A stretch of DNA of 64,000 nt from an uncultured Bacteroidia bacterium (GTDB lineage: Bacteria > Bacteroidota > Bacteroidia > Bacteroidales > F082): assembly GCA_902774365.1 (NCBI GenBank), contig CACYHX010000002.1:25408-89407 (forward strand). Reading direction: 5' to 3'. The notes beneath the pieces are model-generated. The model was not told the origin of the DNA. It saw only the letters and a program-made list of their open reading frames with translations, and did no database searches. The position numbers were made by a program, and so were the translations under genes. Positions 273 through 39,638 of this stretch are shown piece after piece (the stretch's first letter is position 1; the number at the start of each line of letters is the position of its first letter).

Positions 273-277
273 CGACT

Positions 278-6265: not shown

Positions 6266-6433
6266 TTATGCGTGTTATCGTGCTGACGTGCTTACGACGG
6301 AGATGGGATGGATAAGACGGATGGGGCTGATAATGATGTGCTATCGTTATTCGTACTTACGTGCTTACGAAGTGGGGACTTATAGGACTAATGAGACTTA
6401 GAATCGCTCTGAGAGGGAGAAAGAAAAAAATTG

Positions 6434-6441
6434 TAACTTTG
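6434..6441 (+). promoter_or_regulatory. Candidate -7 promoter box (TAACTTTG) for the AlbA_2/Schlafen-type gene
   Basis: Matches TAnnTTTG, 29 nt upstream of ATG6470. Confidence 0.3.
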
Positions 6442-6469
6442 TGGGCTGAAAAACAGAAATCGGAATCGT

Positions 6470-10290: not shown

Positions 10291-10367
10291 GGAAAAATCC
10301 ACATACATTCTCTTTTTTCAAAGAAATATGCCTTTTTTTTCAATTTATTCGGGTTCATATAAACGCA

Positions 10368-10397
10368 TGTAGAGACGCGGCGCGCCACGTCTCTACA
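10368..10397. repeat. GTAGAGACG-family palindromic hairpin (GC-rich loop)
   Basis: TGTAGAGACG-CGGCGCGCCA-CGTCTCTACA, downstream of the giant operon. Confidence 0.8.
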
Positions 10398-10420
10398 ATA
10401 CAATCAGGGGTATGATGCCC

Positions 10421-10448
10421 ATAGAGACGCAAAATTTTGCGTCTCTAC
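10421..10448. repeat. GTAGAGACG-family palindromic hairpin (AT loop)
   Basis: ATAGAGACGCAAAATTTTGCGTCTCTAC: a 13-bp perfect palindrome, 8 nt downstream of the stop of the 85-aa gene. It is probably the operon terminator. Confidence 0.8.
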
Positions 10449-10455
10449 GGCAGCA

Positions 10456-10713
10456 TCATTTTTGTTTCTTCCGTTTTGTCAACAGATAGGCGCCCGCCAT
10501 CCCTGTCAGCAGCAGCAACCCGCTGCCCACAGGCGCATAAAACTGGTCGCCATCATGGCCTTGGACGGGGACAAACAGCACGAACTCGTCTTGCTCCAGA
10601 CGCATCATGCCTTCAAATTCATCGTCGGCAATAAAGATTTGAGCATTCATAGTACCAGCCATCAGCATGAGAGCTGTCAGCAAAACCACGATTCTTTTGT
10701 TCATCTTTTTCAT
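10456..10713 (-). CDS. 85-aa secreted mini-protein with an N-terminal signal peptide and a C-terminal TM helix plus basic tail (sorting-signal-like)
   Basis: MKKMNKRIVVLLTALMLMAGTMNAQ (signal peptide) | acidic 35-aa core | ...YAPVGSGLLLLTGMAGAYLLTKRKKQK. It starts 13 nt after the stop of the 4,764-aa gene on the same strand. Confidence 0.6.
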   Translation of the reverse strand: MKKMNKRIVVLLTALMLMAGTMNAQIFIADDEFEGMMRLEQDEFVLFVPVQGHDGDQFYAPVGSGLLLLTGMAGAYLLTKRKKQK

Positions 10714-10726
10714 TTTCCTTCCCTCC

Positions 10727-13700
10727 TTATCTCTTTACTACGACTTTTTGAATTCTTGTTCCTTCGCTATTGGTCAAGCGGAATAGATACACGCCTGGTG
10801 CGACATCAGGCACTCCTACCCTGCTTTGTCCTCCATGGACTTCCTTGCTCATCAGCACTTGGCCTAGCGGGTCGACGAAATCCAGCTGTCCGTCGCCCGT
10901 GACGATCCACTGCGAACCATCGAAGAAGACGAAGGTTTGGATTTCGTTATGCTCCTCCACATCGGTCAAGCTGAAGACGATGAGGAAACGCGACGGATAG
11001 TCACCCTTGTGACCCTCGAAGGTGTAGGTGTCGTTTCTGAGCATGTCGTACTCGATACCCGTGATGTGGTCGATAAGGTACATGCTGTGGAAGTCGGCAT
11101 TGGCGGTGTTCCACTTCATGGTGAAGATGTCATCCTCCTTAGCCTCGAACCACACCGGCACGCGGTCGATACCCTGCTGGGCAAAGAGCGCTGCATAATG
11201 GGTGTTGTCGTGTTGGGCATAGAACAAGCCGTCGCCCACACGCAGCTCCTTCAGCTTGGTGGCGCCGCCCCACTCGGGACGTTCAAATTCGATGACCGTC
11301 ACGTCGGCGCAGCCTTGGTCACTGCTCAGGTACAGGTTGACCAAAGGATAGGCCGGTCGGTCGTCGCGGAAGGTGCTCTCACCTTCTATCGCTGAACGTG
11401 GCACCAACATGCCTTCGTTGAACGACAGATTGCCTGCCGCCTTTGCCCTTACGTAGAAGCCTTGGTGCGGGTGCAAGTAACGCTCGGCATAATCACCGCC
11501 CCTCGAACCACGCACAGGATAGTATCTGAACGCGGTGCTGGCATCCTGGTTTTGATACTTGTCGGCGTTATAGACAACATAGAATGCGCCTTCATCGGCA
11601 TTTCCACTGAAGTAGTTTTCATCGCTCAGCACTTCCAGGTTAGCGCCAGTAGCCACCTTATCGAAGTCAAGGTAGCTGTGGAAGGGATTGCCCACCAGGT
11701 TCCAGCCTTTGAGTTTGGATGAGGAAGTGAGCGTCAGCGGGATGCTCTTGACGCCATCATTCAGGATGCCGTGGCTCTGCATGAAGGTTCCCGTAGTGAT
11801 AGCTGCCATATAGCCTCTACCCACGATGAGCTTGTCTTCGTTCTGATTCGCCGTAGCACCCTGGACAGGGACATAATCCAGATGATCATGCGGCTCATCG
11901 CTATGCCAGTGGTTGGGGCCGTTACGCTTGAAGTTGATCCAATGGTAGTCAGGCTCAGTCCAAGTGTAGAAGTCCATGCCGTACGGGTAACGGTGTCCGT
12001 TCGTTGAAGGGCATTCGTCGCTACCCACAATGAACAAATCGTTCACATGACCATCGAACAAACTACCTCGACGCGTCGGGAAATAACCGTCGGTCTTCTG
12101 GTTGGCGGCATCGAACTCCTTCATCCAGTAACGGTTTCCGGCTCCGCTGGCGCACTCGTCACTGCCCGGATTCGTCAGCCAGCTGAATTCGTTACCATCC
12201 GACAACCAAGGATTATGGAAATGTCCTTCAGCGTTGTAATCTCCGCTAGTATACGTATTCGTGTTATGTCCTTGGTAATCAAACCCTTGAGGCGCATTGT
12301 TCAACGGAGTGGAGAACATGTGCCAGTCGCGCGGCAGCGGATAAGGTCCTATGCCAAGACCGTTGAGACCGACATTGACGCCAGGCGTTGAGGTTGCGTG
12401 TCCAAACGAATTGTCGAAGGTGATACCGACGTAGGTCTCTCCTAGGGTAGCCAACTTGCCTGGATACTTGATGGAGGCATGCTCGTAGATACTCACCTTG
12501 TCGGCTTCTATGATGACTGAAGCGAGAGCTTCGTCACCATTAAACGATGTTTCAAGAGGAGCACTGTCGTGACCGTCAACGTCGCCGTAGACGAACACAT
12601 ACTCATCACGTTCGAGCATCGTGCTGAGGTGCTTGTCAGCGCCGTCGCGCGCCGTGCCGCCATATTGCAGCACCTTCCCCTTGCCATAAGTAGCCAAGCT
12701 GCGGAAGTCGTCCGTTGATTCGACATCGGTAGAACTCATGTCGGAGAGCAACAGCACGGGCAGGTCGCCATTGATTTCGGCCATGCCCGGACGCGCCCAA
12801 CGGGCGTAACCATGACCGCTATGGTTCTTGACCCATTCGTTCATGCGGACGAACATCGCCGTGTCGCCTTCAATCTTATTGTCTTGATACATATAGCCAA
12901 GCATATCGGCACTAATGACATCCGAATACCGTTTGCATGTCGCATCCACACCGCCCGTGACAGCAAATGAATAGTCCGTCGTGGTGTTGCCCATGGCGTA
13001 GCACTGCTTCATGTTGTCAGCGGTGGTGTTGCTGGCTGCCAATCTACCGAAATTGGATGCCGTCAGTGACGTACTAAAATCATACCAGTTCGCATAGCAG
13101 TTCATCACCGTTGCCCCAGTGTTGATGCCGAGCAATCCACCAGCCACAACGTTAGCGTTGTTACTGCTGATGTCGAATGTGACGTTGGCGAACGCGTTGT
13201 AGATGTTGCCTCCAGTGGCTTTACCCACCAAGCCGCCAAGGGTGCCCTTATAGTTTTGACCAATGGACAAGGTGCTCATGGTCATCGACGAGTGGATTTC
13301 GCCTCCGATCAGGTTGGCCACCAAGCCGCCTATGGCATTTCCAGTCACACCATCATTGAGGTTGGGACCAAGTATTATGACAGCAGCCTCGCTGTTGGAG
13401 ACCTTCGAGGTGCCATCCATGCTACCGACCAAGCCACCGATATTCTTGCCCGCGGTGCCATTCAGGTCTGACACGACAGGTTGATACTTGCCGCTCACCA
13501 AGAAGGTACGGTCGACGGTGCCACCATGGACATGGCCAAACAAGCCATAGTCGGTAAGTTCGTAGCGCAGGTCGCCTGTTCCGATATAGTCGATGTAGAG
13601 GTTCTTGATGAGATGGCCTTGACCGTCATAGTTACCAATAAACGGAGTAGTCTCGTTGCCTATCGGCACCCAGACATACTGTTTCATGTCGAGATCCGCA

Positions 13701-16700
13701 GTTTGCTTGAATGGCTCATTCTGGAATTTGTCTTTAGTGATGAGCCACGCCAAGTCTTCGGGCGAGTCAATGCTGGTGGCACTGTAGCCCGTCGGCGCAG
13801 TCCTCACCACGCTGGCCCAAGTCCAACCGAAATACAGCGTCTTGTTATCACGATCCTTGGTTCCTGAAGCAACGTAATAGGTGGTTCTCGGTGAGGCGGG
13901 CTCCAAGGTCTTGTTACCGCTGACGAAGAACCAATCCTGGTCGTCGGTGAAGTTGCAGCTCTCCCAAGCCTTAGCGGCTATTTCGTTGGCTGTCATCGTG
14001 GCAGTGGCAACCGGCACGGCCTTTGCCACAGGAGACAAAGTATTGTTGTGATAATCCGCATCCGTGTTTCTGATCGGGCTGGTCACGCCGATGCGGGTCT
14101 TCTCGTTCAACTCGTCTGTGATAGTGAGGTGCTTGAGGAAGGTAGGCAGATACACATTACTATTGACCGGGTGGTCATCCGATCCAACCAAACGGCGTTG
14201 CTTGCTGCCTGTGACGGTCACCAAGCCTTCCACATTCACCGTGGCATCCTTGTCGACAAACAAGCCGCCACCTTGTAGAGCGACAGTGGATCCTGAATAA
14301 CAATCGTAGTCCGCGTTGCTGTACCATGTAGAGGCTGCATCCGTGTTGTTGTAGCCACGCTGCAAGATGGTGCCATTGGCCAAGATTGCTTCAGTACCAG
14401 CCTCGATGTTCTTACTGCCCTTCAGGGTGAGTGTATTATCGGCAGTAGTGACCACCATCGGTTTGTCCACTTTGTACATTTGCGTACTCGTGAAAGAGGT
14501 TGGGATGTTATGTGTCGTAACATCACTTTGGCTGGGGTTATACAAGCCATCCACCAACACATTCTCCATCACGAATTTGCTCTTGTTGGCATGGATCATC
14601 ATGCCCAAGTTGGCGCCAGGACCCATAGAAGCATCCATTGTCGAAGACGTTCCTTCGTTAACCAATCCATCGTAAGTGCTCGATGGAACAGGAGCAGGAT
14701 GCGTCGCATCAACAACCGTATTATCCATTTTGCCATTGCTCATCATGTGTCCACCGGGATAACGATACAACTTCAAGGTATAATTAGTCTGTTGGTTCAA
14801 GAGGCCTTCCGCATCTTCTTTGATGGCCTCAACAGGACCGACCACATAAATGATGTCTTCCGCAAAATTGAATGGATAGTATGCATCAGTTGTAAGGTCT
14901 TTGCAGATACCTTTATAATCTGAATCACCAGATACGGTCAGTTTGGGCATATCGGGGAAATGGCCCCATCCTGCCTGGTGGCTCGCATCCTTACCCCAAC
15001 CGCCATTGCCGATGCCTCTGCCGTCGACGTACCAGATTTTACCAGTAATACGTGGCAGCACCCATTCACGGAACTCCTCAAGGTCCATCTCACCATTGGC
15101 TTTATTCTGCACATACTCGCCGATGTTGAAATAAGGATACTGTTTCGTTTTGGTGAAGTTGCTTCCGCCGTCGTCGCCATCAGTTGTGTAAGTATAATAC
15201 AAAACTGTCTGAGGCGAGGTAAAGAAGTTGTAATCCGTATTATAACTCAAGAAGCCGCCATCGCTGCCATTCATGATGTCTCCAGGAATCTGATGCCCTG
15301 TAACACTGATGGGGTTGTTTTTCAGTGTCACCTTCGGGCGGGCGTAGGCAAAGCTCTCCGTGCCGACAGGTTGGAAGAAGTCGCCTCTCATCCTGAAGAA
15401 ACCTTGGAGTTGGCCGTACATTCTTTTCTTGTTACTGGTAGTTTCATCCAGATAACGCACATAAAGCCTCGAGTCGCCGTTGAAGATGATGACGTTTTCT
15501 TGATTGTAGTTCAAAGGTGTGCTAGGAGCCGTTTGCGAATAATACAACCTTGCGTTTTCTGCGGTGTTGTTGCCATTCGGATTGACACCTATCCACTCCC
15601 AATAGTTAGCGTCGCTACCATCCAAGTGACCGTATGAAGTGCTGTTGGCATTTCTCAGATGCAAGCTTCTCACTTCATGGATGGAGTCCATGTAGGCAGG
15701 AGCGCCGACGGCGCCAAGCACGATGCCAGAGGCATTGGTCACATACACGCCATTATCGACCTGAAGCACAGCGAACTTCCTCTCGGAGTCGGATTGGCTG
15801 ATGTCGTCAGCACCGCTCAGGTTGACGTTGGTATTGTCAAGCATGATAACGTCGCCACGCTGGAGGGTGGTCAGTGTACGGGAGGCCTGGGTCAACTCGG
15901 CTGTTGCGCTGCCGCCAGGATTGCGCGTGCCGTAATTCCTGACCAAGATGTTACGACCTTCCACACCCGACTCGCAGTTGGTACCGCAGCCATACACACC
16001 ACCTCCGATGTTCATATAGTCGTCAGCATTCGCATCCGGGGTTTCTGCGGTAGTGTTGTAGCCGGTGCCGTCGATGTAGACTCTACTGTAGCCCGACACG
16101 TTAAACGAGTGGTCCCAATCCGTTGAGCCTATACTTCCATAAGAGCCGCCAAACACGCTGCCCTTGATGTCGAGGTTGGCAACGGCAGGAGTCTCTTGTC
16201 TGTGGATGTTTTTGCCATAGAACTCATCCCCTGACTCATTTGACGTTTCGACGATGGCCTTCTGGCCTATCAAGACCGCCACCGAGCCTTTCACTTTGCC
16301 ACCGTAGCCGGCGCCATACACATTGCCTTTTTCAATACCTCCTTTGGCGTCGGTGCCGATGGTGCCGCCACTAATGTTGACAAACGAGGCCCAACCCTTC
16401 GAATCGTGCGGGTCTGACGGGTTGTCGTCTTCAGCATAGTAACTGCAGCCATACACATTGCCTTCGACGGTGCCGCCCCACATGTTGACCCAACGCGGAG
16501 CCTTGTTGGGGCGCGAAGCAGGAATCTGACGGCTGCCGCCAAACAAACTACCATGTATCAAGCCACCCGACATGTTGACCACTTTGTAATCGTGTACCAC
16601 GCTCTGGCTACCACCGCCATACACATTGTTCCAGATGACGGGCGAGTATTCGGTCTCGTCGACAGTCGAGTTCTTGATGTTGACGATGGAATAGCCATAC

Positions 16701-19700
16701 ACCTCACCTGCCGTCTCGCTTTCGGCAGTGGTGAGCAGACCGCGGCCGCCACCGTACACATTGCCGTCAAGCGTATTGTAATAAGTGGAAGTGGGATTGG
16801 CATCGTCATCATCACCGATGATGCCGCCTTCAATGTCGACAAGGGCATTCTTTCTCACATGGCCGTCCTCGCCGCCACCAAACACGGAGCCGTAAATCTG
16901 GGCCGTCTGGCCAATAGTCACATGGGTGTTTTTGACGAAGGCCAATTCGACATACTCGCCGCCCATGCCGCCGTGTCCTGAGCCGAACACGTTGCCGAAG
17001 TTCTCGTCTTCGTGAATCGTACCAACAGTACCGCCCACGATAGTCACCGAAGCCAAGCCTGTTTTGTAGTTGCCTTGTGCATCGGGTTCCTCAGTGGCAT
17101 TGCCCACCGAGGCCAGGTTGCCGCCGCCATACACGTTACGGATGACATGGCCGCCATCCATATTGACATGGGTGTTGCCTTGCACCCAGCCCGCCGTATG
17201 GCTATGGATTTGTTCACCTTCATGTTCGTATGTGTCGACACCACGACCGCCGCCATACACATTGCCGTGGTAGGGGTCGACGCAGGGTTCGAGGTTACCA
17301 TAATCATGGCCACCGATTTGTCCGCCATGGATGTTGACGTAGGTGTCTTTCAACACATGTCCGTCTTCGCCCGAGCCGAACACCGAGCCTTCAATCCAGG
17401 TTTCGGTGCCCGATTTTTCCATGATGTTCACCGTGGTTTGCTTCACCTTCGACAAGCGTGTTGCCATGGTGCCAGGCGCATCTGCCTTACCTTTGGCGCC
17501 GCCATACACGTTGCCGCCCACGCGCTCGTCGGGGTGAGACGGGTCAGTAATCAAGTGACCTATGTCGATGTTGCCGATTTGGTATTGTCCACCCACATTG
17601 ACGGTGGCATAGCCGTGGTTGACGCCAACCAGCGTGTCGCCATTGACGTCGATACCGACCGAGCCGAGACGACCGCCGCCGAAGACGGAGCCGAGCATGT
17701 GGCCGCCCAAGACATTGACGGTGGTATTGCCACCCACGCGGCCAGCGGTTTCACTTTCTTCGTGGTAGTTACGGCCTCCGCCAAAGATGTTGCCGTCGAA
17801 GCCGGTGATGCCATTGGTACCCAAAGTGCCTTTCTTCATCGTCACGGTGGCGTTGCCAAGCACATGGCCGTCGCTGCCGCCGCCGAAGAGCGACCCCCAA
17901 ACACGGTTGGCGTCGCTGTCGTTGTATCCCACCTCTACCTCGGTATGGTTCACATTACAATACGGTTTCATGGCAGAATTGCGACCGCCCTTGGGACCAC
18001 CGAAGACGTAGCCGTTGAGACCTGTATTGTCCAAAGGACCGATGATGCCGCCGGTCACTTTCACCGTAGCCTTTCCGGTGTTGGCAACAGGAGTGACGCT
18101 GCTTGCCCCATCAGACAAATTAGAAGGATTCACATAAGTAATTTCGAACTTTCCCACGCTGGCCACTTCGCCACCGCCGAAAACATTCTCAAAGACATGG
18201 CCACCCTTGATATTAACATAGGTGTCACCATACACGCGACCTGCTATTAAGATGGTCGGCTCGTGAAGAGCGTTGTTGGTATTCAATGATTCCGCCGTAT
18301 TTGCGCCTTCATAGCCTCTACCTCCGCCAAACACATGGCCGCAGTTCTCAGCGACGTTATTGTTGGTGTAGACGCCGCCGATGGTGCAGTTGCCAGCGAT
18401 GTTGACCGTGGTGCTGTCGCGAACACTGCCGACTTCGCCACCGCCATACACTGAGTTCTTGATGGCTGCCGTGCCTTTGATGGTCACATTGGTCTGCTTG
18501 ACGCGTGCCGCCAAAGGCCAGATAGGATTTGTGCTAAACACACCTCTACCAGCACCATAAACGTTGCCGCTCATGGTGTAAGGATTGTCATGGCTGGGAT
18601 GCGTTGAGCTGTTGCCGACGGTGCCACCACTGACATTAACGACCACGTGGCCGTAGGTCTGGGCGTTCTCGCCTGTCACATCGTCCCTCATTTGGCCATA
18701 ATATGGATTGTCGGTCATGACACCATTGTTGTCATATTGGGCATCCACAAGGTAGGTACCCACCGAAGCACGGTTGCCACCGCCATAGACAGAGTTGAGG
18801 ATGGTGCCACCGGTGATATTCACGTTGACATTGCCACTCACCGAACCTGCGGTAAGGGCCTCCTCCGTGGTGCCTCGACCGGCGCCAAAGACATTGCCGT
18901 CTGCCTTGGTGAGGCCTTGGGTTCCAATGATGGTGGGAACACCGCTGGGTGCCTGACTGACCTTGAGGTTGACGTCGCCCATGACGTGGGCGTCCTCGCC
19001 ACCGCCAAAGACACAGCCGTAAATACGGCCACCGCTGACGGTGACATCGGTTTCCCACACGTTGGTCCAGGTGTTGAAGTAGATGCGCGGGTCGCCCTTG
19101 CCCGAGCCATAGAGATAGCCAGGGACAGGATGATTTTGAATATCTGTTGTGCTGCGCGGCACGCCGATGGTGCCGTCAGTCATTACGACAGTAGCCTTAC
19201 CACCTGAATTATGGTCTTCGCCATGAATCGTATAATTATAGGTGTACATACCCACATTAGTGACCTCGCAGCCACCGTAGAGGCAAGAAAGGATGTGGCC
19301 GCCCGTGACTTCCACGCGGGTGTTGCCCTTCACATGTCCCGCCGAGCGCAGCCATTGGCTTTGGCCGTCGACTGAGCCGTAGGGATAGTAGCCCGAGCCG
19401 CCGCCAAACACATTGCCAAAGAAGGTGCCGCCATCAAGGCCTGGTTTCGGTTTACCGCCCTCAAGGACGAAGATGTCGTAGGGGTCGCCGTTCATAGTAT
19501 AATTCCAATGGGCTGCCGGATTCAAGGTAGTGCTACTGGTCCATTCCTCATCAGTGTAGCGACGGGTGAGACCTTCGCCTGCGCCGATTTGTCCGCCTTT
19601 GATTTTCACCCAAGTGCTGTCAAACACACTGCCGTTGTCGCCACCGCCATACACAGATCCGAGCACGAAGGCATCGTCTGAGATTTCCACCTCGGTAGCG

Positions 19701-25021: not shown

Positions 25022-25032
25022 ATCGTCTAAAG

Positions 25033-28000
25033 CTATTCATTCACAAAAGTTGGTGTCAGGGTTGCGTTTGCTGTTCCCATGGTGAAGGTGGTGCTGGCCG
25101 AGTGTGACTCATGCACGCTCCCGCTACCAGTCACCGTCCACTCGCCAAAGGCGAATCCCGTTGCAGGAGAGGCCACCAAGTTGAGCACAGCGCCTTCCCT
25201 GATGTACGTGCCACTACTCACATGTTGGCCCTGCACGTCGGTGACTGTGATGGAGCCACCGTTTGAGGGCTGAGGCGTGTTAATGGTCAGGATATGGGCC
25301 GGCACAAGCATTACCGATATTACGGCATCGGCCGTTCCCATGATGAAGGATGTGGTGGTCGAGGTGAGATTGGTGACCACCGCTCCGCCATTCACTGTCC
25401 ATCTATCCAAAAGATATCCCGTTTCCACGGTAACCTCCAATTGGAGCACCGCCCCTTCGCTGATGCGACGATTCAAGTCGACGGTATTTCCTTGACCGTC
25501 TTTGACCGTGATCGAACAGTGTGACGGTGTGTTGACTGTCAGACTATGGGTGGTAGCAGCTCCAAACGTGCCAGTTATGGAGGCATCCGTTGTTCCCATA
25601 GTGAAGAAGGTAGTCGGTAAAAAGTTATTGGCTATGCCAGCACCAGTACCTGTGAGCGTCCAACCATTGAACTTGCCTCCGTAAATGGAGGGTATGGCCT
25701 CTAATTGCAGGTTAGCATATTCGTCAATGCTTGCACCGCTATTTACCAATTGGCCTTGACCATCGGTCACCCGAATGACATTGGAGCCGTATTGCGGCGC
25801 TGACGCATCATTTTGGCTGATGGTCAGTTGATGGCTATCGGGGACGATAATCACCTCAGAGGCGCCTTCGACATTGCCATGGTTGCCGCCGCCGTACACA
25901 TCACCTAAGATATGCACCGGGGTGTCGTTTGTGCTTACTCCGACAATCACTTTGGGATTGCTCGTCACCTTACCTTCGTTGCCGCCGCCAAACACATTGC
26001 CTTCATATCTCTCATTCTCTTGGATGGAACCGTTGCCATCGAAGTCGAACGTACCGCCAATGGTTCCCTTAATGATGCTCACTTGGGGCGAGACGCCAGT
26101 GGCGACCAAAGGCGTATAGTCGGTGGCATTGCTACCGCCATACACATTGCCGACAAAGAGGGCGCATCCTGTATTCCTCTCCTCCACCTTGACGGTGATC
26201 TTGCCTTCCACATTGCCGTTGCGGTCGCAGCCGCCAAACAGGTTGCCGATGGCACCGCCATAGACATTGACAGTGATGTTGCCACCCGTTCCGATGAGTT
26301 CGGGATGACCGTTGGGATAGTGATCCGCATCATACCTTTTCACATGGGCCGCATAGCCAGCGTCGCCTTGGCAGCCGCCATAGAGCGTGCCGATGATGCC
26401 TCCCGTGACGTTGACAGTGATATTGCCATAGACCGTGCCCAGGCGGCATCCGCCGTATGCGGTAAGGTAGTTCTTTTGGTCGGCGCAGGTCAGATTAAGC
26501 TCCATCTCGCCCACCTGGTCGGCGTTGTTGCCGCCGTTGAAGAGGTTGTCGATGACCAATTCGCCACACACGCCTCCGGTTTCCAAGTCTTGGACAATGT
26601 TGATACAGTTGCCCAAACGGTTGGAACCACCAAAGCAGAAGCCCACATGGCCACCTTTGATTTGGCTATAGGTCTGATGTATCTCAGGGTAAACTCCCAC
26701 ATTGGATGCCGCGACGATACCATTACCACCACCAAAGATGTAATTGAAACGGCCACCGTCCACAACGGTGTGCGTGCTTATGGCATGAGCGGCATTGCTG
26801 CCTCCAAAGACCTCCTCGATGGTGTTTTCGCAGCCGTGGATATAGACATGGGTCACTTTCTCCGAGTGTTGGTTATTGTTTTCAGGAGCATAATTGGCTT
26901 TGTTGCCGCCTCCAAACACCTGGTAGATGGCATACGTACGGTCCGGGCCTGTGTAGTCATACATGTTTAGGGCATCGTGATTCGTCTGATAGACGTCGAC
27001 ATACACATTCGTTTGGGGCGAGCCATTGGTGTTGTTGCCGCCAAAAATGGAAGTGCCCTTATTGACGCCATCGATAAGCCTGCCATTGAAGGTGGCCTTG
27101 CCGAAATAGGTGCCTGCGTTTTCGCCACCCACGATGACATGCACCACGCCATTGACCCATCCTTTACTGTAATCGTTGATATCACCCAAGCCGCCGCCAT
27201 ACACGTTGCCGTTGACGGTACCGTTGAGGATGGTAACCGTAGTGGTATTGAGTTCGCTGGAGTTGACCGAGCCAAAGGCCGAGCCACCATAAAGGTCGCC
27301 ATAGAGTTTCGGATATTCGCTAGCCACGTCTCCAGACTCAAGGCTGCCAAAAGTAATGTTGACATCGCCTCCCACGGTGGTAGGTGCGCCGTAGCCGCCG
27401 CCATGAATGTCGGCTGGGGTTAGCTCGCTGCCGACAACGCCGCCATTAAAAGTGATTTGCACATTATGATCTATGGCACCTACGGCATTGCAGCCACCAA
27501 AGACGCCAGTGCCAACCGAGCCACCGTTCATCACGATGGTGCTGTTGCCTGTGGACTCGTTTTCCACAAACAGCACGCCAGCCTCGTTGCCGCCGCCGAA
27601 GACGCTTCCACGCACCGCGCCGTCATCAATCGTCACATGGGTTTCGCCGCTCACACCAGCATCACCGCCGCCGAATGCACTTCCAGCGACCGTGCCGCCA
27701 TCAATCGTCACATAGGTCTTGCCGCAGGGACCGGCCAAGCCGCCACCGAAGACATCGCCCGTGCAGATGCCGCCCAAAGCTTGGACATCCGTTTGGTAGC
27801 AATATGGAGGAGTGACGCCACCCGAGTATTCGTAGCTGCCGTTGCCGCCGCCAAACACATCACCGGTGGAGCCGCCCGTGACAATCACTTGCGTGGTGCC
27901 GCCCACCACACCGCTGACATCGCTGCCGCCAAAGAAAGTGGCAGGATGCTCGCCGCCGTCGACAAGCACCAAGGTGTTGTTGCTCACGCCATTGCTGCGG

Positions 28001-31000
28001 CAACCGCCATACACAAAGCCAGTCACCTTGGCATTAGTGGACACTCCATCTCCTAACCCATTGGGTTTGTATATGTCGCGCAAATGCACCATACTGCCGA
28101 GGTTGTCATAACCATTATAGGAGAGGCTGCCCGTCATGGCACCCTCGTTGCAGCCGCCATAGATGGTGTGAGCCTGTCCCTTAAGCATGATGATGTCAGA
28201 CAAAATGTCCAAATCACCTTTGTTGTTGCCGCCAAAGATAGTACCGACCTGATTGTAGGCACTTTCACCCGTGGGCATATTAGCAACATTGATGAACACG
28301 GTGATACGGTCCAACACGGTAACGCCGTTGCCGCCGCCATACACCGTATTAATGTAACCGCCTACCCCATCTCCACCCGTTGCATCGATGTTGACGTCGA
28401 CGAAGGTGTTGGATTGGACGGGCTGGTCGGTAACGTCGCAGTATTCGTCTTCAGTATAAGTGTAGGCACCGTTGCCGCCGCCATACACTGTGTAGACTTT
28501 AGGTTTGCCGGTGATGCCCACGTAGGTCTTCACCCCGATGGTCTTCAAATTGGTTTGGCCATCGGAAGCCACATCATAACGGGCAGGCAGCACGCGGTTG
28601 GTGATTTGCGCCACCTGTCCCGCGCGGTCGTTGCCGCCGTAGAGGGCGCCGTTAGTATGCTCATCTCCGATATAGCCGATGCTACCGCCCGACACCTGCA
28701 CCGCATTGCTGCCAAAGACAGAGGCGCGGTTGCCGCCGCCATAGACACTGCCTTCCACAACGCCGCCATCCATCTGGACCGTGCAGAAGCCCATGAACGT
28801 AGGATAATCGTTCCCATTGGTGGTGGAATTAATGAAGCCAACGTATGCCATATTGCCACCTGCATAAACATTGCCTTTGACAGTAGCAAATGTTTCCGCA
28901 TCGACCTTACTCACCTTCACATGGGTTTCGTTGTGCGAAGGGATGTTTCTCCCGACATGGTATTGGCCAGGGGTGAAATTGAGGCCTTCGACGTATTTCA
29001 CACCGTCGTTGCAGTGGTAGTAGCCATTGCCGCCGGCGAAAAGGTTGCCATAGATGGTGCCTCCAGAGGCCTTCACGTAGGTGGCGCCCTGAACGGCCTG
29101 CTTGTGTTCGTCAGTCAAGGTTGTACCTTGAGGGAAAGTAAGCCTTGTGCTACCCACGTCGCCGCCGATGTTGCAGCCGCCATACACGGTGCCCACATGG
29201 CCGTTCTTGACTTCCACCCAAGTGCTGTAGGCCACATTACTCATCTGGCAACCGCCATAGAGGTAGTCGACCAACATGTTGGCGCTGTTCATCACCACAT
29301 GGGTACCATAGAAGATGGGAAGCTGATTGTCGCCAATGTAATCGGGTTCGAAGTCTGCAGCTATGGTATTCGCTGGTGCATCGGGGGTTTGTGCCAGCAT
29401 CTGACCCGAATTGCCGCCGCCATACACGGTGCCGACGCTGCCTCGCGTCAGGGTAATGGTCGGCAGGCCATTCATGTCGGCTCGGTTGTTGCCACCGAAG
29501 AGGGCGCGAACGTTGTAGATGCCTGTGCCGTCCCACGCATAGCTACCGTTGATCTCGCCGACATTATCTTCGTCCCAGCTGCTGACAGCTTCAGTGAAAG
29601 TCTTGGTACGTGGGCAGTTGACGAGCACATGGGCATCCCCCACGTCAGCCGCATTGCCGCCAGCGAAGACGGTGTCGCACATGCCGCCCGTGATGGCGAT
29701 GTCGGTCGTCAAGCCCACAACCTTGTTGCCACCGCCAAAGACGTAGCCGATACCGAAGTCGCGGCCCATGCCATCAGGATAACCGCTCGTTTGGGTCTTC
29801 GTGTCATTGACCTCGATATGATGCTTGCCCGCGGTTTGGTTGCCACCAAAGTTGTTGCCGCCAAACACAGCGAAGGCCGTGCCGCCATTGACGATGATGG
29901 AAGTGCCGTTGACATTAACATCGGCATTGGTGATAAAGGCGTTCTTGGCGCCGCCAAAGATGGAGTCGACCTTGACGACGTTGGTAACCATTGTGATGTC
30001 CGTCTTGGTGATGGTGGGCACGGCCAAGGTGTAATCAGCACCTGTCGTGTTTTCCCATACCACCTCGCCCACCGTGTGCGAACGTGTCATGGCCCTGACT
30101 GTTCCATTTGGTGAAACAGTAAAGGAAGTATGATCGTCATCAGCGGCCACGAAAGTGGAGCCGTCGTAGGCATAATAGCCGTTGCCGCCGCCATACACAT
30201 CGCCAATCCTGACTTTAGTAGAGGGTTGGCTGCTATTATAGGTCGCTGCATCAGGGTCAGTGCCGGTCACGCCCAACTTAATGGTTGAGCCGTAAACGCT
30301 TGGGGTATCGCCATCGTAGCCCAGCACCGCGCCAGCGATGTCGTTGCCGCCATACACTGCGCCGATGCTATCGGTGTTGATGATGACCACCTCGGTCTTG
30401 CCACGCACGTCGGCCATACGGCCGCCGCCAAACACCGCGCCACCAATCACGGCCGTGGGTTGGTGAAGGGTCGTGAATTGTAGCGGTTCAGGCTCATCGG
30501 AAGCACAAGAAGAAGCCTTGACCTTGTAGTCGTATGTTGTTTCGTGTTCCAATCCTGTAAGGGTGTAGGATGTGACATCGCCCACCGTTTGTGAAGTCCA
30601 TGTCGTGGCATCCGACTTTTTCCACGAAACGACGTAACTCTCTGCGGTCTGTGTCCACGAAATGGTGACACTCTCGTAAGTGACACTGGCCGAGAACGAC
30701 GGGTTTTGGCAAGGCGTTTTCACCGTTACCTGGGCCGATGTGGTTTGGGTGGAACCGTCAGGATAAGTGACGGTAAGTGTCAAAGTGGCTATCTTGTGAC
30801 CATCATTGTTTTCGATACGATAGTACAAAGTCGGTGTGGCCGAAGTGCTTGAATGGACCATGTCCGTATTCGTGAACGAGAGGTAGTCCGCGCCTTCGCC
30901 CGAGATGGACCAGCTGTAGGTCCACTGGGACGGGTCAGAGCCACTCTGAACGGCCTGTGCAGCAGTAGGAGCATCTGTATTTGAGCTACCGTAGGGATAA

Positions 31001-31836: not shown

Positions 31837-31852
31837 TTCTTCGTCTCCTTCC

Positions 31853-34800
31853 TCAATTACCCGGTGTTGTTGTTTCGGAATCTGTACTCGTGTTTGATCC
31901 GTTACTTTGTCCATTCACCACCACTTTGGTGTTGCCTCTCACCTCGGCCATATTGCCACCGCCATAGATGTTGCCGAGCACCTTGGTGCGTCCCAAGATT
32001 TCGACCAATGTGTTGCTAAGCGACTTGCTCTCGTTGCCACCGCCAAACACATTGCCATTTACCGTGGTATTGCCCTTGAGCGTAATCTTGATGTTGCCCG
32101 TCACGTTGCCGAGGTCGCTCATGGTGATGTCCTCACTGGTATAGAATATATGGTTTGTAGCATCAGCTGTGTTCTGTTGCTGCTGCGTACCCTGCTCCCA
32201 AGTGAAGGTTTCAGGTTCTACCGTACCAAAATCGGAAAAGATGCTCGTTTCGGCTTTAAACACTGACAATGTAGGTGCTGTTGTGGGATAGACGGGTACT
32301 TCGTTGGCCGATGCCTTATATCCTCCGCCAAAGGCACTGCCAAGCACGGTGCAGTCTGTCAGCGTCGAGGTCACGGTGCCATCCACCATTCCTTGACATC
32401 CAGCGCCATAGAAACTATGTAGGATGGTGCAGTTGTCCAACACATTGGTGACTGTTCCTGTAGTGGCCAATGAGAACGAGGCATAGCCAGTATAGAAACG
32501 GGCAACGCCGTTATGTCCTCTCGAGTGCATGATGAATTCAAACTTGTAGCAATTGCCTAAGCCATAGTTGGCTTTATAGCGCAAACGTCCTTCAACATCT
32601 GAATCGCTGTCACTATCCAAATAGTGATCAGCGAAGTATCCGGCAGGATAATTAAGTGTGGCTTGAAGAGCGATATTGCCATCTTCATCATTGGTATAGG
32701 TAGTGGCCGTGCCGCCGAAGCCAGCACCATAATACTCGCCAAAGGTGGTGTTCTTGGCGTGTGTGGTGACGGTCTTGCCTGTCGACATATCGCCAAACTC
32801 AGGGCCGCCGCAGTAGAAATCGACCCTACTGTTGTCGATGGTGACATTGATGTCGCCAGTAATAGGCGCTTTCGAGGTGGTTCCTCCGCCAAAGAAGCGA
32901 CCGATGATGGCATGGTCGATCTTGGCCGTCATGTTCACGTGACCATCACTGCTACTGGTTTCTCGGGGTTTTTCCATGTATGCCGCAAGGAACTTGTGGA
33001 TCTTGCCTCCAGCACACCAGAAAAAGATGTCGGGGCCGTATGCGGTTCCCTTTCCGTATCCTGTCATGAAGCATTGCTCAATCTCGCCACCCGTCACATT
33101 GACGGGGACCAGGGTATTCGCATGATTATTTGCACTATGGTTGCCTGGATAGAATTCCTTCACGTATGCCTTGCCACCTAACTGGTAATATTGCAGCTTT
33201 GTGCATGGATTTAGACGGCTGCGCACCATTTGGGTGAAATACCCTCCGTTGATGATGCAGCGGTAGTTGCGCAGGTCGCTTGCGCTCGTGTTGAAATTGT
33301 ATGAATCAATCTCAAACTGGTTGGCAAACATGAGAGCGGTTTCCGTAATCTCGAACCATCCGCGAGGCTTCCAAATGGGTGTGTTGGGATAGAAACGAGT
33401 TCCCGTGACATGCGCCGACATACCCAACGGGATGAAAGCCACAAAGTCGAAGCGCATGGGCGGTACTTTGGGACGGTCTTGGGTGTTGTTGGAGTAAACG
33501 GCGTAGTCAGGTTCCTGGTTGTTGTCAGCATCGATGCTCATGATGGTATATCCTTTCGACGTCAGGTTCTCCAAACTCTCATCATCCCGATGGTAGTTGC
33601 CCACCAATACAACAGCTTGGGCATGGGTGGTACCAGAAGCACTCATCGCACCAAGAGCCGCCATCACGGTTTTATAAACCGTCTTACCGTGATAAGTGGA
33701 CGGCGTGCTACCTGCAAGAGGGGTGCGGGTCACGTAACCGGAAACCGAAGTACCCCCTGGCTTATCTTTTTCGTATGCTATATCATAGCTCTCGTCGCAC
33801 AAATAGAAGGCATTGGCGAAGTTGGCCTCAATGGTGATGGCTGTCACGCCGTAAGGCACGATATAGTTGCCGCCTTGGGCGAAGATGAAGCCGGTGGTAC
33901 TGTAGAGGTCCTTGGTGGTACATTTGCGGTCGGACACGTTGTAATGCTCAAAGGTGCCTGGCGTTCCACCTGTAATGCTGGTAATCTTCCAACCTGTACA
34001 AATCTTGTCATAGTCGGTGTTCACCTCAAACTCGTTGGCGAAAGGCAACACCACCTTACCCCAAGTATAGTCGTAGTTGTCTTCGTCCATGTCAGTGATG
34101 GGAAGGCTCTGGTTGGAGTATGTGTTACTGCCAATCTTCACAGTGACATTGAGATAGCCGTTGGTGCCCATCTCGGTAAGGATGTTGCTCGGCGTGGGAG
34201 CATCGAGCACTTTTCTGGTGTTGTTTGGCCAAGGTTCAATGATGGGATAATCAGCCACATCTTTTTTCAGCGCCCAGTGGCCTATTTCGGCAATGTCGTC
34301 GGCAGAAATGTCGCCCACATTGTTGCAGTTCACTCCGCCAAACAAGAAGAAGGCGGCCATCTCGCGGTGGGTGTTGAGGATATGGGTGTAGAACGGGAAG
34401 CGCGTCAGGAAGTCGTCCTTGTCGATGGCCATTTGGTCGTTGTAGGCAGTGTATTGCAACCCCGAGCGATAGCGCCAATAGTTGTATTCGGTGAAGTTCA
34501 TCACATTGTTGACATGGTTGCCGCCATACACGGGCGAGATGTTGGTCGCGCCCGTCACGTTGCCGTACATCATGCAAAGGGCGATGCGCACATGGCCAAC
34601 GGTTCTGTCGGAAGCCACAGTGCCTTCGTTCTTGCCCACAATGCCTGCGGCATAGCTGCTGCCGCTCACGTTGGCAAAGTTGTAGCAGTTGACCACGCGC
34701 ACCGATGAACCTGACTCAATCAGTCCGACAAGGCCACCTGTGTTGGTGCCTCCGCTGACGCTGCCCGCCTGGATGCCGCAGTTGTAAATCTTGGTGCCGC

Positions 34801-36208
34801 CCTTTGCCGTGTTGACGATGGCGCCAACATTGCCGCTGCCGCTGTATGTAACGCTACTGACGACCACATTCTTGATTATGGCATCTTCGGCCACGCCTAC
34901 CAACGCATGGCCATTGAGGGCGAAGGCATGGTAACAGCCGTCGATTTGGCCTCTGAATGGGGCTTCAGCCGTGCCGATAGGTGCCGAAGAGGTGAACCCT
35001 TCGAGAAGAACGTAGTGACCATTCATATTAGTGATATCACTTGACGAGCTGACTTCCACCGCTGGATAGTAGTACGACTCATTGGACATAAGGTAGCCAA
35101 GTTTTGTGGCGACGGCCCTGATGACATCCACTCCCTCAGCACTAAAGGGGTTAACATACGGAATTGAAGAAGTCGTCGCCTGTGAGCCATTGGTGGTGTA
35201 AAATATCGAAGCTCCGGCTGTGGCACAGGTGATGGTGGCGACATTGTTGTTGACCGTGATGATAGGTCTTGCACAAACGGGAATTTCGTAGGTGCTCACT
35301 GCTGTGGGGAAATAATCAGAGGCACTCTTGGCGATGGCTTTGATGACGGTGATGGTCTCTGTCAACGTGATGGGTGTAGAGTATTCCGGCGAGGACATCG
35401 TAGGCGTTGTTCCATCCGTGGTGTAATAGATGGTGGCTCCTGAAGCCGCCGTAATGGTAATAGTCCCATCGAAATTGTTGGTGATGGTCGGAGCGGCGAC
35501 GGTGGCAGGCTCGAGGTAGAACTTGGCATTGGCATCATCCTGGGTATATATGCCTATAATACCAGCAGTGTTCGCATAACCTGTGGGGCCTCCCGTCTTG
35601 CCCGATTCGCCTTTAAGGGATTGTTTGTTTCCGCCATTGACGGTAAACCATTTATTATTTCCATTTATGCCAGCCGACGAAACAATCCGGATAGTCAGGT
35701 ATGTGGAAAAAGGTTCTATGGCAAACAGTGCTTTGTCATCGAGATCACCAGAAACTGCTTCAAGGTGTACACGCATACGATTGACATCAGCCGTGCGAAT
35801 TTGGCCATTGGAAAGTATATATTTTCCAGTGCTGGTTTGCTTGATGTAATAATAATCAGAATTAGGAGCTTTTTCGATGGTCCATATTGCCTTCCTTTCA
35901 TCGTAACTGCTTGTTCCTCTGCATTGATACGTGGTGAGGAAAGGATTCCCATTGTCAGTGCCCGTAAAGTCATCGTCTGGAGCATAATAGCACCAGCCTT
36001 CCGTGGGGCAAAGGTAGTAGTTGATGGCAGGTGTACTTGAATTATAACCAACACTGCCGATATAATACACACCCGAATAATCAGTCTGTCCCCATGCCCA
36101 AAACGGGGCGAGGAAAAGCACGGCCAAAGCCAAGAGTCTGACTTGTCTTCCAAAACTATATGAAATCACTTGCTTAGTCATAATCTTTATTTTATTCATT
36201 ATCAACAT
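31853..36208 (-). CDS. Giant (1,451 aa) secreted protein: two chitobiase/hexosaminidase-C-like (CHB_HEX_C) modules, a GLUG-like region, a large unknown core, and a terminal YGGG repeat
   Basis: Signal peptide ...RLLALAVLFLAPFWAWGQ. ITAASGATIYYTTDGTTPTMSSPEYSTPI and ITCATAGASIFYTTNGSQATTSS match the CHB_HEX_C_1 pattern. TGGLVGLIESGSSVRVVNCYNFANVSGSSYAAGIVG is GLUG-like. The C-terminus ...NVFGGGNESKSLSNTLVEILGRTKVLGNIYGGGNMAEVRGNTKVVV shares the repeat of the next two genes. Confidence 0.85.
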   Translation of the reverse strand: MLIMNKIKIMTKQVISYSFGRQVRLLALAVLFLAPFWAWGQTDYSGVYYIGSVGYNSSTPAINYYLCPTEGWCYYAPDDDFTGTDNGNPFLTTYQCRGTSSYDERKAIWTIEKAPNSDYYYIKQTSTGKYILSNGQIRTADVNRMRVHLEAVSGDLDDKALFAIEPFSTYLTIRIVSSAGINGNNKWFTVNGGNKQSLKGESGKTGGPTGYANTAGIIGIYTQDDANAKFYLEPATVAAPTITNNFDGTITITAASGATIYYTTDGTTPTMSSPEYSTPITLTETITVIKAIAKSASDYFPTAVSTYEIPVCARPIITVNNNVATITCATAGASIFYTTNGSQATTSSIPYVNPFSAEGVDVIRAVATKLGYLMSNESYYYPAVEVSSSSDITNMNGHYVLLEGFTSSAPIGTAEAPFRGQIDGCYHAFALNGHALVGVAEDAIIKNVVVSSVTYSGSGNVGAIVNTAKGGTKIYNCGIQAGSVSGGTNTGGLVGLIESGSSVRVVNCYNFANVSGSSYAAGIVGKNEGTVASDRTVGHVRIALCMMYGNVTGATNISPVYGGNHVNNVMNFTEYNYWRYRSGLQYTAYNDQMAIDKDDFLTRFPFYTHILNTHREMAAFFLFGGVNCNNVGDISADDIAEIGHWALKKDVADYPIIEPWPNNTRKVLDAPTPSNILTEMGTNGYLNVTVKIGSNTYSNQSLPITDMDEDNYDYTWGKVVLPFANEFEVNTDYDKICTGWKITSITGGTPGTFEHYNVSDRKCTTKDLYSTTGFIFAQGGNYIVPYGVTAITIEANFANAFYLCDESYDIAYEKDKPGGTSVSGYVTRTPLAGSTPSTYHGKTVYKTVMAALGAMSASGTTHAQAVVLVGNYHRDDESLENLTSKGYTIMSIDADNNQEPDYAVYSNNTQDRPKVPPMRFDFVAFIPLGMSAHVTGTRFYPNTPIWKPRGWFEITETALMFANQFEIDSYNFNTSASDLRNYRCIINGGYFTQMVRSRLNPCTKLQYYQLGGKAYVKEFYPGNHSANNHANTLVPVNVTGGEIEQCFMTGYGKGTAYGPDIFFWCAGGKIHKFLAAYMEKPRETSSSDGHVNMTAKIDHAIIGRFFGGGTTSKAPITGDINVTIDNSRVDFYCGGPEFGDMSTGKTVTTHAKNTTFGEYYGAGFGGTATTYTNDEDGNIALQATLNYPAGYFADHYLDSDSDSDVEGRLRYKANYGLGNCYKFEFIMHSRGHNGVARFYTGYASFSLATTGTVTNVLDNCTILHSFYGAGCQGMVDGTVTSTLTDCTVLGSAFGGGYKASANEVPVYPTTAPTLSVFKAETSIFSDFGTVEPETFTWEQGTQQQQNTADATNHIFYTSEDITMSDLGNVTGNIKITLKGNTTVNGNVFGGGNESKSLSNTLVEILGRTKVLGNIYGGGNMAEVRGNTKVVVNGQSNGSNTSTDSETTTPGN

Positions 36209-36257
36209 TATAAATATAGTGAAACACCCTTGCGGGGTGCTATTATCAAAAAACGTG

Positions 36258-36265
36258 CAAAAATA
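36258..36265 (-). promoter_or_regulatory. Candidate -7 box (TATTTTTG on the minus strand) for the giant operon
   Basis: Plus-strand CAAAAATA lies about 50 nt upstream of ATG36208. The -33 element is poor (CTTG). A short hairpin CACCC-TTGC-GGGGTG (about 36225-36240) lies in the predicted 5' UTR. Confidence 0.25.
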
Positions 36266-36451
36266 CGCATTTTTCCTTGATTTTACAAGGGTTTCCGAAG
36301 ATTTTTCCTGATTTTTGCAGGATGGTATAAGAAACTGAAAATCAGTTAATTAAAAAACTTACAAAACATTAATGCAAAGTTTCTTAATTATTAAAAATTA
36401 ACAAGGAAAAGAAGGGAAAGTAGACATGCACGTCGAGCGTTCAGGATTTAG

Positions 36452-38828: not shown

Positions 38829-39566
38829 ATGAAATCGAAATTGTTCATCTTTTTATTCTTGCTCGTCACCCATTGGGGCTTAGCCCAAAACACCCACTTC
38901 TGGGACGGCATCGAAGCCTTCGACGGCCCGACGGACGACAACCCGGTGCTGGCCTCGCAGTTGGATTTCTATTTCGACAAGATGGTGGCTCCCCTACCCG
39001 ACTCCATCACACTGGAAATCACTCGATTGATTGAACGCACAAGCTGCAACACCGACCTCCGCGACTTCATCCTTTGGCACCTCTTGGAGAAATATGAGCA
39101 TCCCGAATACATGAGCCAAGACCAAGTGTTCGTTTGGCTTTATGACCAATATTTTTCCCGGTTGGAAATCAACGACTTGCATGAGACCAACTTGGCCATG
39201 ATTCAAGAAAAAGCGGAGCGGCTGAGACGCCTGGCACTCTTCAACATCGCCCCCGACATCCGCATCGGCGATTCCATCAACCTGCACTCCGTCGAAAGCG
39301 AATACACGGTATTGTTTTTCTACGACCACAGCTGTGAGGTCTGCATTGCGGAAAAACGGGAGTTGGATTCGGTCTGCGCAACGCTGCCCGAAATCAAGGT
39401 TCTGCCCATCGACCTGAACATGGAATCAACGACAAACCTTTCGGAATTGCTGGCCATTTTCGACACCTACGACATCGAATCCAAGCCGTTGATTTATGTC
39501 CTAGACAAGGACAAACGCATCATTGCCAAGAAGATACAGGCGAAACAAATACCATCAATCCTGTAG
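38829..39566 (+). CDS. Thioredoxin-fold (TlpA/ResA-like) protein with an N-terminal helical domain, secreted
   Basis: Signal peptide MKSKLFIFLFLLVTHWGLAQ. Thioredoxin-like VLFFYDHSCEVCIAEKREL with a CxxC motif. Confidence 0.7.
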   Translation: MKSKLFIFLFLLVTHWGLAQNTHFWDGIEAFDGPTDDNPVLASQLDFYFDKMVAPLPDSITLEITRLIERTSCNTDLRDFILWHLLEKYEHPEYMSQDQVFVWLYDQYFSRLEINDLHETNLAMIQEKAERLRRLALFNIAPDIRIGDSINLHSVESEYTVLFFYDHSCEVCIAEKRELDSVCATLPEIKVLPIDLNMESTTNLSELLAIFDTYDIESKPLIYVLDKDKRIIAKKIQAKQIPSIL

Positions 39567-39638
39567 AGACGCCGATTTATCGCGTCTCAAAAAAAACACA
39601 TTACATCACATCTGAGACGCGATGAATCGCGTCTCTAC
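39563..39638. repeat. Pair of GTAGAGACG-family hairpins between convergent genes; both stop codons lie in the outer arms
   Basis: GTAGAGACGCCGATTTATCGCGTCTC - 25 nt A-rich spacer - GAGACGCGATGAATCGCGTCTCTAC. TAG 39564-39566 ends the plus-strand gene. CTA 39635-39637 is the TAG that ends the minus-strand gene. Confidence 0.85.

Follow-up and report, generated by a model that had tools for sequence, protein, structure and literature searches.

The stretch analysed here comprises 64,000 nt from an uncultured Bacteroidia bacterium (contig CACYHX010000002.1, positions 25,408 to 89,407; hereafter the window). Four consecutive genes on its minus strand encode three giant proteins that share a glycine-rich repeat and, at the end, a mini-protein (genes 1 to 4, Table 1). 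The original prediction, made from the sequence, had described four closely spaced open reading frames (ORFs) between an AT-rich spacer and two strong hairpins. This arrangement was confirmed: the gaps between genes 1/2, 2/3 and 3/4 are 16, 11 and 13 nt, the spacer upstream of gene 1 is 243 nt long, and the hairpin pair folds with a minimum free energy of -57 kcal/mol, compared with -26 ± 3 kcal/mol for shuffled sequences (z = -10). The spacer contains the word TATTTTTG, which we take to resemble the -7 promoter element TAnnTTTG of Bacteroidetes, and a second word of this kind is located beyond the hairpins, before the next gene. With one candidate promoter, no space for internal signals and a strong predicted terminator, the arrangement fits a single operon, and hence one transcription unit.

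The longest open frame of gene 2 reaches position 31914 (2,293 aa at most), and the additional 26 codons (31837-31914) overlap the end of gene 1. Because the homologues begin at MKK...RLAACCLL of the orthologue consensus, the start was placed at 31836. Five or more independent metagenome assemblies contain the ORF of gene 3 in intact form, and it is therefore no assembly artefact. In some assemblies of the window organism (L008, L012, L014) this gene is split, with pieces of 1,131 + 3,237 aa, 2,144 aa or 3,182 aa, and in five other assemblies its intact length is 4,763-4,764 aa. The pieces result either from assembly trouble in the repeats or from real frameshift variants.

Table 1. Positions of the operon and of its predicted features in the window
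Feature	Position	Strand	Basis
Leader/promoter region, AT-rich, 243 nt, upstream of gene 1	36209..36451	-	sequence reading
Gene 1, 1,451 aa	31853..36208	-	ORF list
Gene 1, CHB_HEX_C_1 / Fn3_assoc domains (two)	35069..35491	-	Pfam, 76.8 bits, 2 stretches
Gene 1, C-terminal solenoid coils (aa 1026-1433)	31910..33133	-	unit HMM, BLAST
Gene 2, 2,267 aa	25033..31836	-	ORF list and homologue start
Gene 2, FN3 domain	30490..30708	-	Pfam and PDB searches
Gene 2, solenoid region	25843..30441	-	unit HMM; tile 27055-28377 modelled
Gene 2, three Flg_new_2 (divergent InlB B-repeat) domains	25042..25797	-	Pfam, 63.1 bits, 3 stretches
Gene 3, 4,764 aa	10727..25021	-	ORF list
Gene 3, solenoid region, about 58 coils	15995..24901	-	unit HMM, self-comparison
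Gene 3, GLUG-motif region (aa 3750-4200)	12722..13474	-	PF07581, 34.7 bits (gathering cut-off 20.5), 3 stretches
Gene 3, T9SS type-A-like C-terminal sorting domain	10733..11056	-	TIGR04183, orthologues, structure matches of the CTD profile
Gene 4 (mini-protein), 85 aa	10456..10713	-	ORF list
Two perfect GC-rich hairpins closing the operon, built on the palindromic word TAGAGACGC	10360..10459	-	folding and word count

Repeat unit, repeat family and predicted fold

The repeat can be described as a unit of 26 aa with the consensus GNVFGGGNAGSVTGNTTVNITGGTIH, of which an iterated hidden Markov model (HMM) finds about 100 copies. Its core motif [YF]GG[GSC] was counted 4 times in gene 1, 29 times in gene 2 and 46 times in gene 3, compared with 0.3, 1.1 and 1.9 times in shuffled sequences. 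At the DNA level, the recurrence of plus-strand words that had been noticed in the region was confirmed: CCNCCNCC[AG][TA]ANAC, the reverse complement of the motif, has 45 copies within the region, and the other 38 kb contain none. The prediction had further assumed one repeat over about 8,500 aa of the three giants. The (V/I)(Y/F)GGG motif was indeed found in all of them, but its extent is smaller. The unit HMM places about 5 units in gene 1, where coils constitute a minor C-terminal portion (aa 1026-1433), about 38 in gene 2 (aa 492-2024, numbered on the 2,293-aa ORF) and about 58 in gene 3 (aa 41-3009). From these spans, therefore, the repeat accounts for about 4,900 of 8,482 aa (58%).

The arrays differ considerably from each other. 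By BLAST, genes 2 and 3 are 25% identical over 567 aa and genes 1 and 3 give no match; the last two coils of gene 1 share 42% identity with the coils at the end of gene 2. Within gene 3 the coils are grouped in diverged super-repeats of about 180-260 aa with 25-48% mutual identity, and each coil position is collinear between homologues. Judging from these comparisons, the coil arrays are old and diverged, and the giants share a type of repeat, not a homogeneous array. The sole tandem repeat at the DNA level in the operon (27589-27754, 75 bp x 2.2, 75% matches) corresponds to three consecutive coils of gene 2 (GDVFGGGLAGPCGKTYVTIDGGTVA / GSAFGGGDAGVSGETHVTIDDGAVR / GSVFGGG...) and probably stems from a coil duplication of relatively recent date. 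An assembly artefact or a recent expansion of the repeat at the DNA level was ruled out as the origin of the arrays by this tandem repeat being the only one, by the collinear coils in homologues and by the identical ORF across several assemblies.

A tile of 441 aa from gene 2 was modelled by AlphaFold2 with 37 homologues and consists throughout of short beta-strands, with a predicted local distance difference test score (pLDDT) of 83 and a predicted template modelling (TM) score of 0.87. One three-strand coil is formed per 25-26 aa, and some coils have loops of 10-45 aa inserted. In the modelled unit a strand at x-V-[YF]-G leads through a Gly turn and a short bridge to a long strand at T-x-V-x-I-x-G-G. 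The model supports a beta-solenoid as the predicted fold of the repeat and bears out the beta-helix or solenoid that had been suggested from the periodicity of the glycine turns.

Comparison of the tile model with solved structures by Foldseek gave no significant match to any well-characterised adhesin or autotransporter family. Of the PDB matches that carry a name, almost all are proteins with a beta-helix or beta-roll (Ag43, MpAFP, CBM89 (7JVI), RTX, tapirin, UpaB and lyases), but none of them is significant (best E = 0.02, TM < 0.3). The same holds for the BFVD viral structures, and therefore no family can be assigned from structure. The best of these matches, none of them significant, fall to passengers of type V autotransporters (Ag43, UpaB, pertactin), long three-sided beta-helices that serve as stalks of adhesins, a design that the giants would share. 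In contrast to these passengers, the proteins described here carry no C-terminal beta-barrel translocator and point to another secretion system, and the matches stay at E >= 0.02 and TM < 0.15.

Searches by sequence led to the same result. Pfam and NCBIfam searches with the whole proteins and 19 tiles delivered accessory domains only and no match on the repeat, and nine repeat tiles searched at E <= 10 had no match either. These searches included the Pmp repeats (PF02415, with GGA(I/L/V) and FxxN), which matched neither the whole proteins nor the nine tiles at this threshold. For the right-handed parallel beta-helix (PF13229 / PF05048) there is no HMM match, next to an all-beta solenoid model and the beta-helix matches in Foldseek that lack significance. 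No Pfam match was obtained in the operon proteins for the domains of type V autotransporters, that is, the beta-barrel translocator and the PATR/pertactin passenger repeats. RTX nonapeptides (GGxGxD, PF00353) did not match either, and the unit has 26 aa and no conserved Asp ladder. Sequence searches in the PDB with single proteins and a family profile of 2,274 positions revealed no solved relative of the repeat; the operon proteins and two family profiles matched there with the FN3 domain and the C-terminal sorting domain (CTD) only. In the literature, searches for the repeat or for a small partner protein of the secretion system of type IX (T9SS) returned nothing specific. The evidence from Pfam, NCBIfam, PDB sequences and profiles, and Foldseek thus supports the earlier view that the repeat cannot be assigned to a characterised family.

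One could suppose that the solenoids are enzymes, namely pectate-lyase-like lyases or hydrolases acting on plant cell walls in the rumen. The rumen habitat would suit such a role, and PL6 alginate lyase, GH110, isopullulanase and AlgG are among the weak Foldseek matches. However, none of the tiles matches a Beta_helix, pectate-lyase or CAZy-type HMM at E <= 10, the regular Gly-rich coils show no catalytic groove motifs, and tens of coils per protein are far more than known enzymes of this fold possess. We consider an enzymatic role of the coils extremely unlikely.

The repeat is widespread among proteins without informative annotation. An exhaustive HMMER search of 1.84 billion representative proteins detected it in 818 proteins at E <= 1e-3, in 513 at 1e-10 and in 161 at 1e-30. 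Almost all of these proteins are 1,000-7,891 aa in length, and the repeat defines at least 500 clusters (50% identity) of unnamed giant proteins. A single name in this set is informative, 'chitobiase/beta-hexosaminidase C-terminal domain-containing protein [Bacteroidales bacterium]'. For gene 2, 335 homologues were scored; where they are named, the name is 'hypothetical', and in no case does Pfam recognise a domain on the repeat. The genomes matched are metagenome-assembled genomes of uncultured Bacteroidales or Bacteroidia, with rumen, deer and bioreactor as named sources; the giants that could be traced to an origin belong to Bacteroidales, for the most part from ruminants.

Gene order, accessory modules and mini-protein

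Synteny across relatives had been proposed as a check on the system, and the gene order proved to be kept. The succession of genes 1, 2 and 3 was found in four loci (L001-L004) down to 41% identity, one of which (L004) has an additional solenoid gene of 759 aa. The 48-kb JGI contig Ga0265298_10000709 (L028 / L031) carries a partial gene 1, gene 2 (60% identity), giants of 8,030 and 5,242 aa and the mini-protein (47-54%). The two giants take up about 40 kb of coding sequence on this contig, and the 5,242-aa giant, which precedes the mini-protein, has CHB_HEX_C and Peptidase_M26_N matches, some of them weak. Among the relatives there are 2 to 4 giants per locus, and their sizes vary as well; one locus (L005) has a single giant and another (L019) a single giant bearing a CTD. 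The operon keeps its layout down to about 40-60% identity, but not the count or the length of its giants. There is no indication that it was acquired by horizontal transfer: in GC content it equals the right flank, and the neighbourhood of EamA, operon and AMP-binding gene is kept in relatives.

All four products start with a Sec signal peptide, which was read from the sequence by the Bacteroidetes A/Q cleavage site (the slash marks the cut) and is in line with the rule expected for exported proteins of this phylum (PMC5837995). In gene 1 the signal peptide (..WAWG/Q) is followed by an all-beta N-terminal domain, two CHB_HEX_C domains, a GLUG-like stretch, an unclassified middle part and the five or so coils. 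A weak RicinB_lectin_2 match at its N-terminus (E = 0.013) is the sole basis for ricin-type lectin N-termini in genes 1 and 2, which we do not claim. Gene 2 comprises the signal peptide (..NAWA/Q), an all-beta domain of about 180 aa, an immunoglobulin (Ig)/Rib-like and an FN3 domain, about 38 coils and three Flg_new_2 domains. Its N-terminal 424 aa were modelled by AlphaFold2 with a pLDDT of 91.6, and tandem FN3/Ig matches dominate the Foldseek results. Because these matches cover only the Ig/FN3 half, the first domain of about 180 aa is left unclassified. In gene 3 the coils start immediately after the signal peptide (..GGIVKA/QVTI) and end in a non-repetitive C-terminal module of 1,750 aa with GLUG motifs and the CTD.

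The accessory modules named in the original prediction were largely recovered, with the CHB_HEX_C pair in gene 1, FN3 and three InlB-B-like repeats in gene 2 and GLUG in gene 3. The GLUG-like stretch of gene 1, in contrast, has no Pfam match, and its similarity to the GLUG region of gene 3 is marginal (BLASTP, E = 0.005-0.01). Toxin delivery of the contact-dependent inhibition (CDI) or Rhs type was ruled out because a toxin or immunity module is present at no C-terminus. Within the C-terminal module of gene 3, a strongly conserved His/Trp-rich stretch, YPYGMDFYTW.EP.YHWINFKRNGPNHWH.D.PH, was observed at aa 4330-4365 approximately (11930-12035). It has no family or structure match and could be a metal-binding or catalytic site.

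The CTD of gene 3, taken alone, falls just short of the curated cut-offs, with E = 7.1e-5 and 22.7 bits for TIGR04183 (cut-off 23) and 18.9 bits for PF18962 (cut-off 27). Support comes from the orthologues: PF18962 was matched in all 22 of 22 orthologous gene 3 C-termini (best 1.2e-9), and the name given to one orthologue is 'T9SS type A sorting domain-containing protein'. In the PDB, the family profile of the CTD matched only CTD entries (RgpB, NucA: 8glk_D, 5hfs_A, 7pq4_A). The profile built from the gene 3 orthologues matches the last giant only, in every locus, and no gene 1 or gene 2 orthologue in any of them; Pfam and NCBIfam likewise gave no Por_Secre_tail match for genes 1 and 2. A reading as T9SS-linked surface protein is thus supported for gene 3, but not for the CTD-less genes 1 and 2.

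The mini-protein encoded by gene 4 consists of a signal peptide (..MNA/Q), an acidic ectodomain of 38 aa (isoelectric point 4.05, charge -8), the sequence P-V-G-S-G, a hydrophobic segment of about 14 aa and the tail KRKKQK. Signal peptide, C-terminal hydrophobic segment and basic tail agree with the tail-anchored mini-protein that had been postulated. Its family comprises 246 clusters of 80-100 aa, none informatively named, with three signatures: a signal peptide ending in ..AQ, a mature N-terminus Q[VI]FI.DDEFEG..R with the acidic 38-aa head, and D.DQ..P[ILV]G[SDN]G followed by about 14 hydrophobic residues (..LLLAGLGGAYLL) and KR[KR]K. In 23 of the 23 loci with a visible 3' end (L008-L026, L029-L031) the mini-gene follows the CTD-bearing giant after 12-26 nt. 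It is absent from three loci (L005-L007), whose solenoid giants lack the part from GLUG to CTD. One giant with a mini-protein partner (P0142) shares only this GLUG-to-CTD part and has Pmp-like GGGIY repeats instead of the coils. Because of this giant and of the absence in L005-L007, the mini-protein can be said to track the GLUG-to-CTD module and not the repeat.

The tail of the mini-protein resembles tripartite sorting signals (PEP-CTERM, LPXTG, VPLPA-CTERM, GlyGly-CTERM) in that the motif P-[ILV]-G-[SDN]-G is followed by a hydrophobic helix and then by a cluster of Lys/Arg. All five of five members tested gave weak matches to such models, each of them below threshold (best E = 0.0033 for LPXTG_anchor, 0.14 for PEP_CTERM and 0.011 for VPLPA-CTERM; scores of 12.9 vs 15.9 and 13.1 vs 16 for the curated cut-offs), no sortase or exosortase gene is visible near gene 4 within the window, and the 'cargo' would be merely an acidic peptide of 38 aa.

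A predicted surface fibre system and its rivals

Taken together, we consider it rather probable that the locus, as one transcription unit, equips a rumen Bacteroidales bacterium with a fibre or adhesin system of beta-solenoids on its cell surface. In addition to the solenoid model and the CTD, the adhesin-type accessory domains found by Pfam in genes 1 and 2 speak for this. Gene 3 would be exported through the T9SS and retained on the surface, where its coils (about 60-95 at 4.8 Å each) would add up to a stalk about 30-45 nm long. The binding modules, namely the all-beta N-terminal domain, CHB_HEX_C, FN3 and the InlB-B repeats, would come from genes 1 and 2, whose products may form the ends that bind a ligand (probably a glycan), whether joined to gene 3 or alone. 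After signal cleavage, the mini-protein would be anchored with its C-terminus in the inner membrane and expose its acidic head to the periplasm. There it might serve as a cargo-specific helper that holds, targets or anchors the GLUG-to-CTD module. Co-assembly of the three giants, as originally suggested, would be consistent with the conserved synteny and with a CTD on the last giant only. End-to-end stacking onto gene 3 is an attractive possibility because gene 1 ends, and gene 3 begins, in coils.

Several observations weigh against this interpretation of the locus. For a passage across the outer membrane, genes 1 and 2 show neither a CTD nor a lipobox that could be recognised. The CTD of gene 3 scores just below the curated cut-offs of TIGR04183 and PF18962, and no T9SS machinery gene (SprA/Sov, PorV, PorU, PorK-N) is located within the 64 kb of the window. 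Since the Foldseek matches are not significant, the fold class depends on the AlphaFold2 model. For the helper role of the mini-protein we know of no precedent. PorV serves as the carrier of T9SS type A cargo, which is subsequently set free or attached to lipopolysaccharide, and this carrier model needs no cargo-specific partner (PMC12635249).

The variable content of the loci also fits a different interpretation, in which the three giants are independent, co-transcribed paralogues that act as adhesins or bind polysaccharides, and in which genes 1 and 2 use an unrecognised export signal or stay in the envelope. The giants are related only distantly, their number per locus ranges from 2 to 4, and there are loci with one giant (L005) or one CTD-bearing giant (L019). 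A beta-helix that functions singly is exemplified by CBM89 (7JVI) from a GH10 xylanase of a capybara-gut Bacteroidaceae: this non-catalytic right-handed beta-helix, which is among the Foldseek matches, binds the plant polysaccharide xylan as a monomer (PMC8810776). It differs from the coils described here in having 14 turns and being fused to an enzyme, it has no sequence similarity to the repeat, and the Foldseek match is weak (E = 0.5, TM 0.23). Against independent giants, the order gene 1, gene 2, (further giants), CTD-bearing giant and mini-gene is kept down to 40-60% identity, and the restriction of the CTD to the last giant means that the CTD-less partners want explaining. We regard independent giants as possible, though not as probable.

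A comparison with the sprCDBF genes of Flavobacterium johnsoniae, which encode SprB, suggests itself. Both sets comprise large proteins that are, or in the window would be, co-transcribed, among them a repetitive T9SS-CTD surface protein of several thousand residues, with a dedicated partner encoded directly downstream. By analogy, the operon could provide a set of gliding-motility adhesins, in which a giant T9SS adhesin is moved along the cell surface, and indeed SprB requires a dedicated partner encoded next to it (PMC12635249). Yet the four proteins and their neighbours have no SprB-repeat, type-B CTD (TIGR04131) or PorP/SprF match in Pfam and NCBIfam, the CTD of gene 3 is type-A-like, and the partner is a bitopic peptide of 85 aa with signal peptide and tail anchor instead of an outer-membrane barrel. 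No link to gliding is shown here, and to our knowledge gliding is not known in rumen Bacteroidales. A gliding function thus appears very unlikely.

The preferred reading, a surface fibre or adhesin system, would place the operon in a known class of design, that of giant beta-solenoid surface proteins linked to the T9SS. New would be the repeat family and the conserved mini-protein partner, neither of which is described in the libraries and papers searched. T9SS cargo with Pmp-type or parallel beta-helix passengers (PF02415, PF13229) is related by the C-terminus, since distant homologues of the C-terminal module of gene 3 carry Chlam_PMP or Beta_helix passengers at their N-termini. The passenger repeat of gene 3 (G.V[YF]GGGN..V.G.T.V.I.GG), in contrast, matches neither the Pmp nor the Beta_helix model. 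From the mini-protein-partnered giant with Pmp-like GGGIY repeats, a common design of solenoid passenger, GLUG-to-CTD module and mini-protein can therefore be derived.

Going beyond this, the mini-protein might be a new kind of cargo-specific T9SS accessory factor that serves a single class of GLUG-to-CTD module, or an as yet unrecognised sorting enzyme that tethers the fibre might use it as substrate. Genes 1 and 2 might be secreted piggy-back by stacking their open solenoid ends on gene 3. We consider this extended scheme unlikely; if true, it would constitute a third mode of cargo handling beside PorV (type A) and PorP/SprF (type B).

Giant surface proteins of gut and rumen Bacteroidales are among their least understood products and are usually annotated as 'hypothetical'. 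For one such family, with members of up to 7,891 aa, our analysis delivers a concretely defined repeat unit and a confident model of the solenoid, together with an operon layout that is conserved and a partner gene that can be tested. Should the mini-protein be needed for export or anchoring of its neighbour, some type-A-like T9SS cargo would have dedicated helpers, which are outside current models. Binding of plant or microbial glycans by the giants, if it occurs, could be relevant to the attachment of these uncultured rumen bacteria to feed particles.

Surrounding window

The palindromic word of the closing hairpins, TAGAGACGC / GCGTCTCTA, was observed 6 times in the window compared with 0.3 expected, at 10370-10447, 39564-39637 and 62015-62023. 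At the two places with flanks read (10370-10447, 39564-39637), it is located at gene ends or shortly behind them, and it looks like a family of repetitive extragenic palindrome (REP)-like or terminator elements.

Beyond the AMP-binding gene, a defence island of low GC content (41-45%) occupies positions 269-7948 on the plus strand. It contains genes for an Eco57I-like enzyme of 1,367 aa, an ORF of 204 aa, a protein with HTH_31 and Peptidase_M78 and a protein with SLFN_AlbA_2 and HATPase_c_4. In relatives (L016, L021, L022-L024) the corresponding slot is taken by AAA ATPases or by a type I restriction-modification system with an integrase among several hsdS genes, in a shufflon-like arrangement. 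The slot beside the conserved operon therefore appears to be a variable defence hotspot. On the other side of the operon, at 40927-45169 of the plus strand, a GH109-like oxidoreductase/glycosidase gene is followed by two tandem paralogous genes for IU_nuc_hydro (nucleoside hydrolase-like) proteins of 462 and 461 aa.

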